From Escherichia phage SP27: a stretch of DNA of 64,000 nt. A program made the position numbers and the translations under genes. The notes under the pieces were generated by a model. That model was given only the letters and a program-made list of their open reading frames with translations. It did not search any database and was not told the origin of the DNA. Numbering within the stretch: position 1 is the stretch's first letter; every line of letters starts with the position of its first letter. Below, piece by piece: positions 4,231-57,525 of the stretch. The stretch lies in the sequence record LC494302.1; one strand, given 5' to 3'.

Positions 4231-5021
4231 TGTCTTACGATTATATGGGTGGAAACCCTGATGCTCCTAACTTTGACCATCGTGAAAAACTGAAAGATGT
4301 TATCACTCAAATGTTGGGTGCTGGGGCCGTTGAGGTAGAAATTACTGATGGTCAATTAGAAATTGCAATTGATAATGCGGTATCGAATTACAGAGCGTGG
4401 AGTTCTGCTTCTAAAGAAGAAGCATTTTTAAATATGAAATTTTATGATTCACAATCTGTATATATGCTACCAACTGAAGTTGAAATTGTTAAAAAGATTT
4501 ATCGTTATGGTAATGGTTACTTAAGTTCTGGTAGTGGGAACTCAGTAGATCCGTTTTCTCTAGCATTCACCAACACTTACTTATTGACTTCAGCACGAAA
4601 TGCAGGTGGATATGATCTAACTACATATGATTTTAGTTTTCAGTTCCAAGAACTGGTAGGTCGTATGTTTGGTCGTGATATTATATTTCAATTTAACCCA
4701 ATGACCAAAAAATTAATTATAGATCGTGATATTCGCGGTACTGAAGAAGTACTATTACACGTATATCATAATATTCCTGAACCATTGTTGTTTCAAAGAC
4801 AGCAAAGTTATCCTTGGCTACGTGATTGGGCATTGTCTGAAGCCATGATTATGTTGGGTCGTAACCGTGCCAAATTTGCTTCTCTTCCAGGTCCACAGGG
4901 AACGTTTTCTATGGATGGTGATACATTACGTAATGAAGGATTACAACTTCAGGAACAGCTTAAAGAGCGTTTGAAACGTTATCAAGATGGTGCTGAACCA
5001 CTAGGTATGATTATTGGATAA
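4230..5021 (+). CDS. Hypothetical protein, possibly virion-associated (neck-like?)
   Basis: Second in-frame ATG chosen because the first (4215) lies inside the terminator hairpin; MSYDYMGGNPDAPNF…. Confidence 0.5.
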   Translation: MSYDYMGGNPDAPNFDHREKLKDVITQMLGAGAVEVEITDGQLEIAIDNAVSNYRAWSSASKEEAFLNMKFYDSQSVYMLPTEVEIVKKIYRYGNGYLSSGSGNSVDPFSLAFTNTYLLTSARNAGGYDLTTYDFSFQFQELVGRMFGRDIIFQFNPMTKKLIIDRDIRGTEEVLLHVYHNIPEPLLFQRQQSYPWLRDWALSEAMIMLGRNRAKFASLPGPQGTFSMDGDTLRNEGLQLQEQLKERLKRYQDGAEPLGMIIG

Positions 5022-5025
5022 ATTA

Positions 5026-5053
5026 AAAAAGACTCCTATATGGAGTCTTTTTC
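5026..5053 (+). terminator. Rho-independent terminator
   Basis: AAAGACTCC-TATAT-GGAGTCTTT hairpin then TTT. Confidence 0.5.
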
Positions 5054-5071
5054 ACATTATGTGATATAATG
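5036..5071 (+). promoter_or_regulatory. Early-type promoter with extended -10 (ATGTGATATAAT)
   Basis: TCACAT-T-ATGTGATATAAT about 27 nt upstream of ATG 5098; weak -35. Confidence 0.4.
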
Positions 5072-16487: not shown

Positions 16488-16883
16488 ATGCAATATAATT
16501 ATCGTGAACTAGTTGAAGCGTTAGACGAAATTACCGGAAGAGATGAAGACGAAAGTTTTTCAGTTGAAGTTGAATCCGATGTTGTAGCAGTTGATGTTCT
16601 TAAGGATATTACCAAATGTCTTATTGATATTGTTGATAAGATTAAATCTGGTGAAGACCAAAAAGAAATTGTAGATAAACTACAAAAAGCCTGTGACATT
16701 TTGTCTGACATTCGATATAATGATGAAAGTACTGAAGTTGCTGATGAAGAAGTGTTGGAAGCCATTGCAGGTTGTTTTGGAACTGAAGGTATGGGACCAA
16801 CAATTGACAAAGAAGGCGTACAACACTATAATGAGCCTGGTGCACCATCATATGCTGCACGTCAAGGTTTTGTTGGAGACTAA
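16488..16883 (+). CDS. Acidic hypothetical protein (131 aa)
   Basis: ORF with RBS GGAGAC; overlaps the upstream stop. Confidence 0.5.
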   Translation: MQYNYRELVEALDEITGRDEDESFSVEVESDVVAVDVLKDITKCLIDIVDKIKSGEDQKEIVDKLQKACDILSDIRYNDESTEVADEEVLEAIAGCFGTEGMGPTIDKEGVQHYNEPGAPSYAARQGFVGD

Positions 16884-16886
16884 TAT

Positions 16887-17267
16887 ATGTTTCCAGAACC
16901 ATCACATAACAGTACTGAATATCAAAATAATGTACTTTCCAAAGTTAGGGAAGTACATGAATCAGATTCAGAAATAACAGACCGTATGCTTCTGATGTCA
17001 ATTTTTGAAAATTTCAGAACTGGCGGTGGTTTACGTCTTAGCAAGTTTGGGTATGGAATTTGTAAAGAAAATAATCTTTATGAATTTACAAAAATCCCCT
17101 TGCAAAGAGAATTTAAAAGTTCTATAATGTTTACATCACTTGACAGAATATGTACTTCACCTTATTATGTTGAAGGTCAGTACATATATCTGACAGATGC
17201 AATGATAATAACTGAATTAACATTGTGTTGTGACGATTTTAAACAGTTATTTTCTATTCATATGTAA
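16887..17267 (+). CDS. Hypothetical protein (126 aa)
   Basis: ORF with RBS GGAGAC. Confidence 0.45.
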   Translation: MFPEPSHNSTEYQNNVLSKVREVHESDSEITDRMLLMSIFENFRTGGGLRLSKFGYGICKENNLYEFTKIPLQREFKSSIMFTSLDRICTSPYYVEGQYIYLTDAMIITELTLCCDDFKQLFSIHM

Positions 17268-17291
17268 GAAAAAATGAATTAAAAATAAATG

Positions 17292-17319
17292 TTGACAAGA
17301 TAGAATGATGTGATACAAT
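17292..17319 (+). promoter_or_regulatory. Sigma70-like promoter (TTGACA-16-TACAAT), diverged first copy of the array
   Basis: TTGACAAGATAGAATGATGTGATACAAT. Confidence 0.5.
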
Positions 17320-17386
17320 AAGCATCAGACATAAAGTTTTCAAGCGACACAAGATGTGAGTTTGAAAAAAAAAAGAAAAAAAGTGA

Positions 17387-17414
17387 TTGACAAGTTGAAA
17401 CGATGTGATATAAT
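17387..17414 (+). promoter_or_regulatory. Strong sigma70-like promoter (repeat copy 1)
   Basis: TTGACA 17387-17392, 16-nt spacer, extended -10 TGATATAAT; upstream A-tract resembles an UP element. Confidence 0.55.
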
Positions 17415-17480
17415 GTTCACATCAAGACAGCAAAGAGATTTACCTTTTAAACACACGGAAAAAAAAAAGAAAAAAAGTGA

Positions 17481-17508
17481 TTGACAAGTTGAAACGATGT
17501 GATATAAT
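17481..17508 (+). promoter_or_regulatory. Strong sigma70-like promoter (repeat copy 2)
   Basis: Identical to copy 1, 94 bp downstream. Confidence 0.55.
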
Positions 17509-17569
17509 GTTCACATCAAGACAGCAAAGAGATTTACCTTTTAAACACACGGATGATTCATGAAGTAAC

Positions 17570-17617
17570 AAAGGAACTGATAAGTTAAATTATTTTAACA
17601 CAGTTCCTTTACTTTTG
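17570..17617 (+). terminator. Hairpin plus U-tract between the promoter array and the proximal promoter (terminator or attenuator-like)
   Basis: AAAGGAACTG-(21-nt loop)-CAGTTCCTTT followed by ACTTTTG. Confidence 0.35.
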
Positions 17618-17636
17618 CCCACGGATTGGCTATAAT
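17608..17636 (+). promoter_or_regulatory. Sigma70-like promoter proximal to the AAA+ gene (TTTACT-17-TATAAT)
   Basis: TTTACTTTTGCCCACGGATTGGCTATAAT about 40 nt upstream of ATG 17678. Confidence 0.45.
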
Positions 17637-17677
17637 AGAAACTTAAACGATTTTATCCAACAAAAGGAAATATATAC

Positions 17678-19003
17678 ATGACTACTCAAAACGATATCCT
17701 GAACGTTAAACTGACTCCAAAGAAAGCTAAAGAAGCAATGGCACTAGCTGACATGATTCAAGATAGCCTGATGATTTGGGGTAGCCCAGGTATCGGTAAG
17801 TCTGCAATCGCTCGTCAATACGCTGATGAAAATTACCCACTGCGTAAAGATAACGTAGCTAAAATCGAGTTCATGAAACAACAAATCGAAGCTGACCCTG
17901 AAAATGCTGATCAGCTACGCCGTGAACTGGCTGCATTTGAAGCAAAACTAATCGACCAAGATACTAACTTTATCGATTTCCGTTTGTCTCAAATCGAACC
18001 AAGTGACCTTCGCGGTATTCCAGTACCAGAGAAGCTTTTCCGTAAAACTGACGGTTCTCTTCTGAAAGAATCTGAGCTTGCCGAAGCAAAAGATTATGTA
18101 GCTGAAACTGCGGTAGTATGGGCTGCACCTAAAGTTCTGAAATTGTCCGAAGATTGGAAAGGTGTTATTCTGTTTGACGAAATTAACTCTGCAATGCCTA
18201 TTGTTCAGGCAGCGTCTTATCAGCTAATCCTCGACCGTTGTGTTGGTGAGATGAAGCTACCTAAGACTGCACTGATTCTTGCAGCAGGTAACCGTGAAAC
18301 TGATGGCGGTGTAACTTTCTCTCTTGCTACACCACTGCGTGACCGTATGACTCACATTGAGATGATTCCTTATCATCAAGATTGGATTAACGATTATGCG
18401 ATTGCAAAACGTTTGAACCCAGCAACTGTTGCGTTCATCAACAACACTGGTTCTAAGTACTTTAACACACTTAGTCCACAAGATCCTTCTCACAGTGGTG
18501 GTACTTCTCCACGTTCATGGGAAGCAGTAGCACGCTACGAAGATCTCAAGAAAACTAAGACAATTGATAAAGAAGTGTTCCGTGCAATGATTGCTGGTCG
18601 TGTTGGTGAAGGTGTTGCAACTGAATACATTGAGTACGTTGAGAACGTTGCTAAACTACCAGATACTATGTCTATTCTGTCTGGTGAAATCAAAGAAATC
18701 GACGCAACGCTGGATATTTCTGCGAACTACTTTATCACTCTGAACTTGGTTTATAAAATTATCGACCTGTTCAATGAGAAGCAAGAACAACGTCTACCAG
18801 TGGAAGAATGGGGTAAACTGTGTAACAACTTCATCACCTTCCTAGACCATAACTTCTCTGCAACTCAAGCAGAACTGGCAGTACTGGCAATTCGTACCAT
18901 CACGCTTCATAAGGTTGCGATTTCCATTAAAGATGTACCAGCGTTTAAAGATTTCATCGCTAAGTACTCTGAACTTGTACGTAAAGCACGCTCTCTTGGC
19001 TAA
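17678..19003 (+). CDS. MoxR-like AAA+ ATPase (CobS-like)
   Basis: Walker A GSPGIGKS, Walker B VILFDEINSA, MoxR-type FRLSQIEPSDLRG segment; CTG/CGT-rich codon usage unlike neighbouring genes. Confidence 0.8.
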   Translation: MTTQNDILNVKLTPKKAKEAMALADMIQDSLMIWGSPGIGKSAIARQYADENYPLRKDNVAKIEFMKQQIEADPENADQLRRELAAFEAKLIDQDTNFIDFRLSQIEPSDLRGIPVPEKLFRKTDGSLLKESELAEAKDYVAETAVVWAAPKVLKLSEDWKGVILFDEINSAMPIVQAASYQLILDRCVGEMKLPKTALILAAGNRETDGGVTFSLATPLRDRMTHIEMIPYHQDWINDYAIAKRLNPATVAFINNTGSKYFNTLSPQDPSHSGGTSPRSWEAVARYEDLKKTKTIDKEVFRAMIAGRVGEGVATEYIEYVENVAKLPDTMSILSGEIKEIDATLDISANYFITLNLVYKIIDLFNEKQEQRLPVEEWGKLCNNFITFLDHNFSATQAELAVLAIRTITLHKVAISIKDVPAFKDFIAKYSELVRKARSLG

Positions 19004-19077: not shown

Positions 19078-20502
19078 ATGTCAGATAACAAATCTACTTC
19101 CAGATTCAATGAAGTATCTCCGGCACTCCAGAAAGAATGTCAAGATCGTCTGGTTCTGGCTCGTACATCTTTGATGTTAACTGCACCATTCTTTGGTGTA
19201 CTCGCTTCACGTTTACGTCCAGTTCCTAATAATACATGGTGTCGTACTCTAGCAGTTGATGGTAAACATCTATTCTACAACGTAGAATTTGTAATGGGTA
19301 TTCAAGACCCATCTAAAAAGAAAGAATATGAAGAAGCTATTCGTGAAAAGCATCCTGAAGTTACAGACGAACAATTAAAAGAAATGACTGAAGGTTTGAC
19401 TGATGAAAACCTTATTGCTGTAATTTGTCATGAAATTCTACACTGTGCTTACGATCACTTCCTTCGTCGTGGTATGCGTGATCCACAACGTTATAACCGT
19501 GCAGCGGATTATGCCATTAACCAAATCATCGTTCGTGAGAAAATTGGAAAAATCCAAAGTTCATGGTTGTATGATAAAAAATATGAAGGTATGACCGCAG
19601 AAGAGATTTACATTCTTCTTGAAGAAGAAGAACAAAAAGAAGATGGTGAAGGTGAAGGTCAACCACAAAGTGGCGGCGGTGAAGGTGAAGGTAAAAATCG
19701 CGGTACTTTTGGTGATATTAAAGATGGTAAGGGTAAACCAAAAGGTACTACCATTGACCAGCATGACGTTCCACAAGAAGGTCAAGAAGGTGGTTCAAGT
19801 GAACAGCAAAAACGTGATTATATGGATGATTTCAAAACAGCAATGATGAATGCTGCACGTGCAGGTGGTACACCAGCAGAAATCGCTCGTATGATTAACA
19901 ACTTTAAAGAACCAAAGATTGACTGGCGTTCAAAACTTCAACGTACACTTCGTAGTTGGTTGAAGTCTGATGCAACGTATCAAAGTCCTTCTCGTCGTTC
20001 ATGGGGTGCTGGTTTTGGTTCTAATGGTTCATTCTATGGTAATCCAATTTACCCAGGGATGAAACCAGATGATGATATTGATATTGCGATTGCACTAGAT
20101 GCTTCTGGGTCTATTTCTGAAGATATGCTTCGTGATTTCATTAGTGAAGTTCTTGGCATCACTAAACAATTCAAACAGTTTAAGATTCGTATCATGACTT
20201 TTGATACTGAAGTTTATACTGTAAAGGATTACAAAACTGGCGAAGAACGTAAGATTCTGGAATATCCAGTAAAAGGTGGTGGTGGTACTGACTTTGAAGC
20301 AGTATGGGTTCATATGAAGAACGACAACTACAAGCCTAAACAGCTTGTAATGTTTACTGATGGTGAACCGTGGCAGTCATGGGGTGATCCAAACTACTGT
20401 AAAACACTGTTCGTGATTCACAGTAACCCAAATAAAGTTGCACCATTTGGTGAGACTGTACACTACGAATATGAAGCTGATAAAAAGCGTCAACGTAGTT
20501 AA
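19078..20502 (+). CDS. vWA-domain protein with an N-terminal HExxH metallopeptidase-like motif (DUF2201/CobT-like partner of the MoxR ATPase)
   Basis: HEILH in ICHEILHCAYDH; vWA MIDAS motif DIAIALDASGSIS; Gly/Glu-rich linker. Confidence 0.75.
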   Translation: MSDNKSTSRFNEVSPALQKECQDRLVLARTSLMLTAPFFGVLASRLRPVPNNTWCRTLAVDGKHLFYNVEFVMGIQDPSKKKEYEEAIREKHPEVTDEQLKEMTEGLTDENLIAVICHEILHCAYDHFLRRGMRDPQRYNRAADYAINQIIVREKIGKIQSSWLYDKKYEGMTAEEIYILLEEEEQKEDGEGEGQPQSGGGEGEGKNRGTFGDIKDGKGKPKGTTIDQHDVPQEGQEGGSSEQQKRDYMDDFKTAMMNAARAGGTPAEIARMINNFKEPKIDWRSKLQRTLRSWLKSDATYQSPSRRSWGAGFGSNGSFYGNPIYPGMKPDDDIDIAIALDASGSISEDMLRDFISEVLGITKQFKQFKIRIMTFDTEVYTVKDYKTGEERKILEYPVKGGGGTDFEAVWVHMKNDNYKPKQLVMFTDGEPWQSWGDPNYCKTLFVIHSNPNKVAPFGETVHYEYEADKKRQRS

Positions 20503-20512
20503 GTACTAAATA

Positions 20513-20545
20513 AAGAGAACGGAATTTTCCGTTCTCTTCTTTTAT
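20513..20545 (+). terminator. Rho-independent terminator
   Basis: AGAGAACGG-AATTTT-CCGTTCTCT then TCTTTTAT. Confidence 0.6.
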
Positions 20546-20547
20546 AA

Positions 20548-20577
20548 GTGGGACAACTTATAAAAATATGATATAAT
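20548..20577 (+). promoter_or_regulatory. Sigma70-like promoter (GTGGGACA-16-TATAAT), second copy of the motif at 1440
   Basis: AAGTGGGACAACTTATAAAAATATGATATAAT. Confidence 0.4.
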
Positions 20578-41552: not shown

Positions 41553-41580
41553 TAGACAAACCGTAAGAATGTGATATAAT
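41553..41580 (+). promoter_or_regulatory. Sigma70-like promoter with extended -10 upstream of the ClpA-like gene
   Basis: TAGACA-16-TGTGATATAAT; the ATGTGATATAATG core is shared with the promoters at 5060 and 17400. Confidence 0.5.
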
Positions 41581-57459: not shown

Positions 57460-57525
57460 AATTTATTCCTTTAAATCAGTAAAGTACTAGTTCAGTACTG
57501 GGAATTATATATAGAAATATTTATT

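Follow-up and report, generated by a model that had tools for sequence, protein, structure and literature searches.

A tandem array of predicted early-type promoters with a privately duplicated unit, and a conserved terminator-like hairpin, upstream of an AAA+ ATPase operon in Escherichia phage SP27

Strong sigma70 promoters lie about 100-130 bp apart in the A1-A3 group of phage T7 and in P1-P2 of the Escherichia coli rrnB operon, where P1 also has an upstream (UP) element. Tandem promoters, 1.1A/1.1B, together with an AT-rich stretch, make up the primary replication origin of T7, and oriF and oriG of T4 consist of a promoter and an unwinding element. In phage lambda, the PR' promoter gives a promoter-proximal leader, the 6S RNA, which is terminated at tR' and released by Q antitermination. 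Here we describe a gene-free gap of Escherichia phage SP27, analysed in a 64,000-nt window of the sequence record LC494302.1 (all coordinates are positions in this window), in which an array of predicted promoters and a terminator-like hairpin precede an operon for an AAA+ ATPase.

The early promoters of T4 combine matches to the -35, TGn, -10 and UP elements, out-compete host promoters and are read by the unmodified host RNA polymerase, and the middle genes of this phage are fed both by extended early transcripts and by their own promoters, which also drive the T4 origins (PMC2988021). T4-type phages also carry Promoter early Stem-Loop (PeSL) elements, repeated modules of a stem-loop, an AT-rich tract and an early promoter that act as substrates for recombination and indels (PMC2839356, PMC4122927). 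Closer to SP27, the report on phage CBB predicts that RpoD-like promoters with UP-like elements serve its early genes (PMC5259590), and the Rak2-like phages encode RpoD-like sigma factors but no RNA polymerase (PMC11895373). The literature that we found on Asteriusvirus, the genus of SP27, holds no description of promoters at the gap between gp562 and gp563 (numbered after phage 121Q).

This gap probably works as a compound transcription-control region, where early-type promoters and a leaky terminator or attenuator would feed an operon encoding the AAA-ATPase and a DUF2201 (VWA-like) protein. What we observe there is a characteristic sequence anatomy, its conservation and covariation among related phages, and a duplication private to SP27. 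The centre of the array is a 94-nt unit in two head-to-tail copies of 100% identity, recovered both by Tandem Repeats Finder (TRF) and by a repeat search (Table 1). The repeat register extends two bases more, to 17553, giving 190 nt in total and a TRF score of 380, and it is the sole long-period tandem repeat in the window, where TRF found no other period above 21 nt. An earlier note, made by a model from the letters alone, had described a perfect 2 x 94 bp duplication at 17365-17458 and 17459-17552, which is the same repeat in an equivalent phase shifted by one base. The contents that it gave for each copy were found as well: every unit consists of A10-G-A7, GTGA, TTGACA, a 16-nt spacer with a terminal TG-A, TATAAT and then 43 nt (GTTCACATCAAGACAG...ACACACG). 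The extended -10 reads TGTGATATAAT, with TG at -15/-14, and both copies reach 12/12 plus TGn in a consensus scan. The A10-G-A7-GTGA tract stands directly 5' of the -35, the position of an UP element. We refer to this promoter as P2 and to its copies as A and B; copy B corresponds to the P2 of other genomes, and a 2-nt GA microhomology runs on from it to 17553.

Two more promoter-like sites flank the repeat. Upstream, P1 scores 11/12 plus TGn (-35 6/6, -10 5/6) and is 72% identical to P2 over the 50 nt of the promoter core, at a spacing of 94-95 nt; it is the diverged third copy that the earlier note had placed near 17292, and its paralogy with P2 indicates that the locus grew by unit duplication once before. 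Downstream, the fourth, distinct promoter of that note (17608-17636) holds up as a promoter-like site of 10/12, here called P3, which has neither an UP tract nor a consensus -35 and whose -35 overlaps the terminator tail. The proposed tandem of consensus promoters with sigma70, UP and extended -10 elements thus agrees with the consensus scan and with the conservation described below, although the count of three to four applies to SP27 and not to the genus, whose standard set is P1, P2 and the proximal site. The P1 leader also holds a mini-palindrome, CACA-AGA-TGTG (17348-17358), which reads TCACA-AGA-TGTGA in most other Asteriusviruses and is nearly invariant genus-wide.

Promoter-like sites are frequent in the surroundings, with 27 in the 5-kb neighbourhood against 14.9 +/- 4.3 in shuffles. 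Some of them (10-12/12) fall inside gp561 and gp562, at 16693-16721, 16804-16832 and 17100-17168, and there is a cluster of five at 11/12 or better within about 700 nt. As further members of the array, the intragenic sites at 16693, 16804, 17100 and 17140 were rejected: 16804 (12/12) is not conserved, and the rest overlap conserved coding sequence.

To place P1 and P2 among the promoters of such a phage, the whole 121Q genome (348.5 kb) was assembled for a promoter census. Sites of at least 11/12 plus TGn number 31 and follow gene direction (29 on the + strand, 2 on the - strand), and four sites in the genome reach 12/12 plus TGn. Among the 31, P1 and P2 carry the richest A-tract (16 A in 22 nt). 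The 105 + strand sites of at least 11/12 include six adjacent pairs 40-160 nt apart, P1-P2 being the only such pair in a gene-free gap with TGn in both members. The first transcribed bases of P2, ACATCAAGACAG, recur after early-region promoters directly 5' of small genes, and a box, (C)ACATCAAGAC(A/G), placed 6-7 nt past the -10, is common to P2 and to the 121Q promoters at 109.3, 141.4, 143.0, 143.3, 145.8 and 146.6 kb; counted as a bare motif, ACATCAAGAC(A/G) is weakly enriched (10 against 6.4 expected). Moreover, the P2-type promoter of phage EJP2 and the 146.6-kb promoter of 121Q have leaders that agree in all of 19 nt (CACATCAAGACGAGAACGT). Because of this census, the A-tracts and the shared initial transcribed box, P1 and P2 are, by their sequence, members of the phage early promoter class lying outside the main early region.

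Stacked units like the present one, paralogous to one another, occur in the early region of 121Q at 138.8, 148.8, 141.4 and 146.6 kb, where a promoter, some 80-100 nt of non-coding sequence and a second promoter precede a small gene. Such promoter/~90 nt/promoter units were rejected as structured RNAs, with fold z-scores of -0.6 to -1.6 (not significant) and no Rfam match. A putative promoter class GGAT-N4-TATAAT was likewise dismissed, as it gave 15 matches against 9.0 +/- 3.0 expected and the distance from GGAT to the -10 varies between genera.

The second P2 copy is private to SP27. The 94-nt unit is single in about 55 related public genomes and assemblies, and close relatives match the locus as two overlapping pieces that span about 95 nt less than the query. 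Alignment gives one copy in 121Q, G17 and UE-S1 and in the diverged lineages ph0011, JNE01, A4, BF17, CMSTMSU and TH47, and one copy is likewise present in another twenty independent assemblies whose gp562 or gp563 product is exactly that of SP27 (NCBI bacterial-assembly contigs, one ENA metagenome scaffold and one Logan contig). In these the stop codon of gp562 and the ATG of gp563 are 311-316 nt apart, compared with about 410 nt in SP27. A query spanning the junction returned no record with a colinear high-identity match, the junction sequence was not found in IMG/VR, JGI metagenome contigs or GTDB genome contigs, and a BLAST search with the locus had no match among complete E. coli genomes or plasmids. 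This answers the part of the earlier note's proposed check that concerned copy number among related genomes, and it leaves the extra copy in SP27 only.

The origin of the duplication can be read from the first A-run of the UP-like tract (17365-17374 and 17459-17468), whose length varies among strains: A8 in 13, A9 in seven, A7 in two and A10 in one. In UE-S1, a T replaces the G between the two A-runs. Removing one unit from the window yields the sequence of the A10 genome (L056, GCA_958305445.1), with no gaps and one mismatch over 2,780 nt, so that SP27 represents an existing allele plus one exact 94-nt tandem duplication. The signature fits a single recent event of slippage or illegitimate recombination at the 2-nt GA microhomology; unequal crossing-over between P1 and P2 was rejected, since it would duplicate the segment downstream of P1 and leave a hybrid promoter, neither of which is seen. 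Recombination patches of less than 50 bp suffice in T4 (PMC2839356). In a T4-like phage proficient in recombination, a direct repeat of 94 identical nt is thus expected to be unstable, which makes the duplication either very recent, or selected, or confined to part of the stock. The proposal that a perfect duplication implies recent expansion or selection is in keeping with the single copy in the relatives and with the A10 allele.

The rest of the locus is old. Throughout Asteriusvirus, P1 and its UP-like tract come first and are followed, after about 45 nt, by an A-tract with P2. A further stretch of about 45 nt, with a terminal GGAT, leads to the hairpin and T-tract, and then come a short CCA-CGGAT-TGG stem-loop, the TATAAT of P3, a ribosome-binding site (RBS) and the ATG. 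P1, P2, the hairpin and P3 are kept in all Asteriusviruses, down to about 82% DNA identity; the P1 -10 is mostly TATAAT elsewhere, and the TATAAT of P3 is invariant across the genus, other genera having a -10-like TAtAAc at variable spacing. Over six genomes spanning the genus, the fraction of invariant columns is 0.61 in the P1 core, 0.79 in the P2 core, 0.92 in the hairpin and T-tract, and 0.79 in the GGA stem-loop with the P3 -10, compared with 0.90, 0.92 and 0.46 at the first, second and third codon positions of the ATPase gene. Because its invariant fraction matches that of codon positions 1-2, purifying selection on the hairpin, loop included, is by this comparison no weaker than on the protein.

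With the ATPase as an anchor, we collected further loci of the Rak2-like clade from IMG/VR and from GenBank phages, namely Hallingskeid, EJP2, CBB and two contigs, of 345,809 and 358,663 nt, that we take to be RaK2 and GAP32. Gene order around the ATPase is kept down to 54% ATPase identity, and all 17 distinct lineages have a perfect TATAAT with TGn just past the stop codon of the gp562 homologue. The -35 at this homologous promoter changes from TTGACA with A-tracts (RaK2) to GGGACA (others) or the class-2 motif TGAAACG (CBB group; motif from PMC5259590). The leader after it is short and holds a box resembling (A/U)UUAAGAcA, in most cases with GGA(U) behind it; then come a hairpin with a perfect 7-12 bp stem and a T-tract, a small GGA-loop stem-loop 7-8 nt later, and at the 3' end of the gap the -10-like TAtAAc, an RBS and the ATG. 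Seven hairpin stems of the clade are all perfect: GGAACTG/CAGTTCC, GGACTG/CAGTCC, GACACTG/CAGTGTC, GGCACT/AGTGCC, GCACTGA/TCAGTGC, GGCACTGA/TCAGTGCC and GCACTGG/CCAGTGC. RNAalifold finds eight pairs in the hairpin. In three of them both partners have changed (in 6, 2 and 4 sequences), and hardly any pair is broken.

A promoter thus stands 5' of a terminator in every genus, and therefore the short transcription unit itself appears to be selected. The arrangement in EJP2 is informative about its parts: there an extended -10 promoter precedes the hairpin, and a P2-type promoter with UP tracts comes only after it, followed by the GGA stem-loop, the RBS and the ATPase gene. It follows from this order that the P2-type promoter is meant to transcribe the ATPase gene, and that the GGA stem-loop belongs to the 5' untranslated region of the gene and not to the terminator.

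The hairpin of SP27 folds at -15.2 kcal/mol (z = -5.35; none of 200 shuffles was as stable), and its loop holds an inner GTTAAA/TTTAAC helix. With loops of 21-23 nt and four G-C pairs, the Asteriusvirus hairpins are missed by a simple terminator scan, whereas CBB-type relatives have canonical loops of 4-6 nt; at the homologous hairpin of G17, an ARNOLD terminator is annotated. The hairpin with a U-tract that the earlier note had seen between the array and the proximal -10 is there, with its 10-bp stem, and its position is that of a separator, but it is more than a mere separator, being the best-conserved non-coding element of the locus. The longer segment 17515-17617 folds with z = -3.3. With a covariance model of the hairpin module, this locus reaches 65.8 bits and no other site in the 121Q genome or the window exceeds 22.7 bits; because the model scores strongly at one locus we consider the module a single-copy element. 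An Rfam scan of 16800-18000 gave chance-level matches only, and neither tRNA nor tmRNA was found.

Several candidate roles for the leader and the hairpin were set aside. A leader peptide (ATGATTCATGAAGTAA...) is not conserved, stopping after 3 codons in A4, and a 27-codon open reading frame (ORF) running through the hairpin of CBB is not common to the clade, other genera lacking the ATG. Pairing of the hairpin 3' arm with the ATPase RBS, as an anti-Shine-Dalgarno sequence, fails because the complementarity is lost in Hallingskeid, and an anti-terminator pairing CCUUUU/AAAGG is not compensated in RaK2, as judged by eye.

Directly 3' of the terminator T-tract lies the second structured element, the mini stem-loop with GGA in its loop. 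Elsewhere it takes forms such as GCTTA-TGGA-TAAGC, CTCAA-GGA-TTGAG and CAGA-TGGA-TCTG, with the loop GGA invariant. Its stems add up to a summed length of 88 over the lineages, whereas flank shuffles gave 54.2 +/- 5.8 and 0 of 2000 reached 88, a statistic that overstates independence because the lineages are related. A transcript initiated at P3 would exclude this stem-loop. With GGA in its loop, it resembles CsrA/RsmA-type sites. The GGA loop also resembles the targets of RegB, which cuts unpaired GGA(G/U) in early-mRNA leaders (PMC3014915).

Table 1. Coordinates of the promoters, RNA elements and flanking genes at the SP27 locus
Feature	Position	Strand	Details
P1, diverged older paralogue of P2	17270-17319	+	A/T-rich upstream tract; TTGACA 17292-97; 16-nt spacer; TGa; TACAAT 17314-19
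P2 copy A, duplicated unit	17364-17457	+	A10-G-A7 17365-82; TTGACA 17387-92; TGTGATATAAT 17404-14; TATAAT 17409-14
Initial transcribed box of copy A, CACATCAAGACAG	17418-30	+	about 27 nt of the unit remain 3' of the box
P2 copy B, duplicated unit	17458-17551	+	TTGACA 17481-86; TATAAT 17503-08; box 17512-24
GGAT leader motif	17551-17554	+	9-19 nt 5' of the hairpin in most genera (18 loci listed)
Terminator-like hairpin	17570-17617	+	10-bp stem, AAAGGAACTG 17570-79 / CAGTTCCTTT 17601-10; 21-nt loop; then ACTTTTG
P3, proximal promoter-like site	17608-17636	+	TTTACT 17608-13; 17-nt spacer; TATAAT 17631-36; 10/12
Mini stem-loop CCA-CGGAT-TGG	17619-17629	+	GGA in loop (17623-25); directly 3' of terminator T-tract; arms covary over 17 lineages
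RBS AAAAGGAAA and ATPase ATG	17662-17680	+	sequence, alignment
Upstream gene, 121Q gp562 homologue	16887-17267	+	PHROG 15638, unknown function; last of the virion structural gene run
AAA+ ATPase, 121Q gp563	17678-19003	+	PHROG 1297 'ATPase'; Pfam, PHROG
DUF2201_N (putative metallopeptidase) and VWA-like DUF2201 protein, 121Q gp564	19078-20502	+	E 2.7e-34 and 7e-21

SP27 is a jumbo coliphage of about 350 kb of the 121Q/PBECO4/G17/phAPEC6 type, and genes stay on the + strand from the array up to about 23 kb. The earlier note had called the gene behind the array MoxR-like, a label that finds weak support: the gp563 ATPase lies at the Pfam cut-off for AAA (21.3 bits, cut-off 21.2), and AAA_3 stays below threshold (16.7 bits, cut-off 27). 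The gp564 partner has clear matches to DUF2201_N (119.5 bits) and VWA-like DUF2201 (75.1 bits). Overall, the window is about 99% identical to 121Q; over its first 25 kb it shares 99.8% with phAPEC6, and over its final 24 kb 99.9% with CRJP21. Relatedness is mosaic, with phAPEC6 closest in 1-25000 and CRJP21/ECO103 4-12-1 in 40000-64000, which suggests recombination among co-circulating Asteriusviruses.

Elsewhere in the window, about 770 nt with gene 584 ('protein associated with group I intron') are absent at 57474-57504 in comparison with 121Q, a presence/absence polymorphism of a mobile element. A promoter-like TAGACA, 16-nt spacer and TGTGATATAAT occupy 41553-41580, in a divergent gap 5' of a ClpA-like gene (121Q gp581). 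Two PeSL-like modules were also noted: at about 5.05 kb (5000-5070), a canonical terminator, AAAAAAGACTCC..GGAGTCTTTTT, is followed by TGTGATATAAT, and at about 20.55 kb (20507-20577) a terminator is followed by GGGACA, a 16-nt spacer and TGATATAAT; GGGACA is also the -35 of the homologous ATPase promoter in three clade loci (L017-L019).

From these features we infer promoter activity and its timing, partial termination and a dosage effect, along the following lines. P1 and P2 would be promoters of the phage early class, used by the host sigma70 RNA polymerase. Their spacing of 94-95 bp, about nine helical turns, exceeds one polymerase footprint, and two polymerases could therefore sit there at once. 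After about 100 nt (transcripts from P2) or 200 nt (from P1), the polymerase would meet an intrinsic terminator of moderate strength; a terminated fraction would yield short RNAs, and a read-through fraction would extend through the GGA stem-loop and the RBS to cover the ATPase/DUF2201 operon, with P3 as a weaker proximal entry independent of P1 and P2. Through the duplication, complete early promoters would number three, a leader isoform of about 197 nt would be gained and the P1 isoform would lengthen to about 291 nt, with more initiation flux into the leader and the operon as the expected effect. The nested short RNAs suggested in the earlier note are a possibility consistent with a hairpin 3' of tandem promoters; its other suggestion, an RNA polymerase sink, finds nothing in the analysis to support it.

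Several observations weigh against a compound control region of this kind. The default layout elsewhere in the window is a terminator followed by a promoter (5,03x-5,07x and 20,51x-20,58x), while a promoter placed before a terminator would rather be the layout of a small RNA (sRNA) gene. The hairpin loop and the leader box are conserved in their sequence, although a simple attenuator would not need this. Tandem very strong promoters can interfere with one another, so more promoters do not surely mean more expression. We found no transcriptome or promoter map for Asteriusvirus or Rak2-like phages in the literature, and the duplication itself, as known from the assembled sequence, would stand or fall with the assembly.

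The layout just mentioned leads to a possible, though on balance unlikely, alternative, in which the promoter-to-terminator unit is a conserved small non-coding RNA gene of the Rak2-like clade, acting in trans or as a protein decoy. Its product, if started at P2, would measure about 103 nt in Asteriusvirus, against some 50-75 nt in the other genera, with P1 and the duplicated P2 giving nested longer isoforms and a higher dose, and it would consist of a 5' box (cAUCAAGACAg / AUUAAGAcA), a single-stranded GGA(U) and the terminator hairpin. Its main support is the placing of a promoter before the terminator in every genus: a promoter, at most 150 nt and a hairpin with a U-tract recur in all 17 lineages despite changes of promoter type, leader length and module order; the unit has its own promoter and its own terminator and no conserved ORF, in an order opposite to the usual one of this phage; the leader box and GGAT recur across genera, the hairpin together with its loop is as conserved as codon positions 1-2, and the fold of 17515-17617 is more stable than expected. 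Against this, no Rfam family matches, a search of the genome with the covariance model gave no paralogues, and no target or partner was identified, no target search having been made. The conserved GGA stem-loop lies 3' of the U-tract and belongs to the read-through RNA rather than the terminated one, the P2-type promoter of EJP2 has no terminator after it, and the leader box, being common to ordinary early mRNA promoters, may be a feature of promoters or initial transcripts and not an sRNA seed.

A compound control region would shrink to an ordinary P1 plus P2 if the second 94-nt copy were an artefact of assembly or consensus, or a minority variant, which we consider quite improbable. The absence of the extra copy from all of the about 55 relatives, of its junction from the IMG/VR, JGI metagenome and GTDB contigs and of the locus from E. 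coli genomes and plasmids would fit such an artefact or variant, as would two identical copies that give no internal sign of age and the instability expected of such a repeat in a T4-like phage (PMC2839356). However, an assembler needs junction reads to write a tandem copy, its usual error presumably being collapse, and the window is free of indel noise (7 gap openings in 57 kb against 121Q), for which two reasons an artefact is less likely; the clean 2-nt microhomology at the junction and the A10 allele shared by both copies, natural as a single copy, are also the pattern expected of a real one-step duplication. That the tandem promoters and A/T-rich tracts form a transcription-primed replication origin is very improbable: the likeness is one of layout alone (tandem strong promoters, long A-tracts, short transcripts), and gene orientation does not switch at the site, the A-tracts stand exactly at UP-element positions, and in other genera the promoter and terminator persist, whereas A-tracts and tandem copies do not. 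Least credible of all is a small protein encoded by the region, either by a 42-aa + strand ORF (17356-17484) or by a minus-strand ORF called by PHANOTATE. These ORFs do exist, and several records annotate a 'hypothetical protein' here, but they cross the A/T homopolymer, whose A7-A10 variation among strains breaks the frame (the A9 tract of 121Q stops the + strand ORF after 9 codons), the annotated ORF has no PHROG, and indels whose length is no multiple of three occur across the genus, and the reading was rejected on these grounds. The minus-strand 'hypothetical protein' is found across P1/P2 in Pharokka/PHANOTATE annotations of SHEFM2K (284-511), JP4, BAU.Micro_ELP-22 and SD phages, and this gene call is almost certainly spurious.

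If the locus is indeed a compound control region, as we favour, the kind of element is well known, and the unexplained part is the clade-wide module of promoter, leader, terminator and GGA stem-loop. Tentatively, and with low confidence, this unit could be seen as an undescribed phage riboregulatory leader or small RNA, which would control the MoxR-like ATPase/VWA operon through a GGA-recognising factor, the private duplication then being an adaptive change of RNA dosage. Its putative parts would be the extended -10 promoter, the AAGAC box, GGA(U), the covarying terminator hairpin, the covarying stem-loop with its GGA loop and a GGA-containing RBS, and by analogy the factor may be a host protein with CsrA-type binding or a RegB-like nuclease. 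The covarying module, kept across all Rak2-like jumbo phages, is undescribed so far and offers a specific, cheap target for work at the RNA level. The locus, if taken as a promoter array, is a clean natural example of a large T4-like phage tuning one operon, with full-consensus host-type promoters stacked in helical phase and changed by whole-unit duplication, both old (P1/P2) and fresh. By its predicted strength, the 94-nt unit could be used as a compact, very strong E. coli promoter, and the duplication can serve as a strain marker and possibly as a read-out of selection on expression of the ATPase operon.

Among the known systems, PeSL elements share with this locus a strong sigma70-like promoter with an AT-rich upstream tract and a terminator stem-loop, and the hairpin and P3 even follow the PeSL order. 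P1 and P2, in contrast, lie upstream of the stem-loop, there is no GGGG...CCCC stem, no ORFans are flanked, and the SP27 junction is a 2-nt microhomology and not the product of recombination between homologous cassettes. Membership in this family was rejected, since the unit occurs at one or two places per genome instead of being dispersed, between conserved core genes in kept synteny. In comparison with CBB and GAP32, P1 and P2 belong to the same class as the RpoD-like/UP promoters predicted in the report on those phages, which in its available part lists promoters genome-wide and does not describe the promoter-leader-terminator unit, its conservation in the clade or tandem copies (PMC5259590). 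In the homologous slot of CBB we find TGAAACG, a 16-nt spacer and TATAAT, followed by a canonical terminator.

With T7 A1-A3 and rrnB P1-P2, the array has in common tandem strong promoters that point in the same direction and belong to one transcription unit. The T7 promoters, however, stand at the end of the genome, some 7 kb from their terminator, whereas here a terminator-like hairpin follows within about 100 nt; the SP27 array also sits inside the structural-gene region, and two of its units are identical copies. Lambda PR' offers a further parallel, a strong promoter with an intrinsic terminator within about 100-200 nt, upstream of the genes served and with a short RNA as the default product, and a regulated attenuator of the PR'-6S-tR' type may also fit the placing of promoter before terminator. 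It differs in that the genes served here are not late and that a proximal promoter is present; no Q-like factor or qut-like site was identified, no candidate having been looked for. Compared with the early genes of T4, the SP27 promoters are stacked without a gene between them, the barrier is a hairpin of the intrinsic type where the T4 barriers to extension are Rho-dependent, and P3 lacks a MotA box. The two systems nonetheless share the same four promoter elements, the lack of a phage RNA polymerase, and downstream genes placed behind early-type promoters with a proximal promoter (here the promoter-like site P3) of their own.

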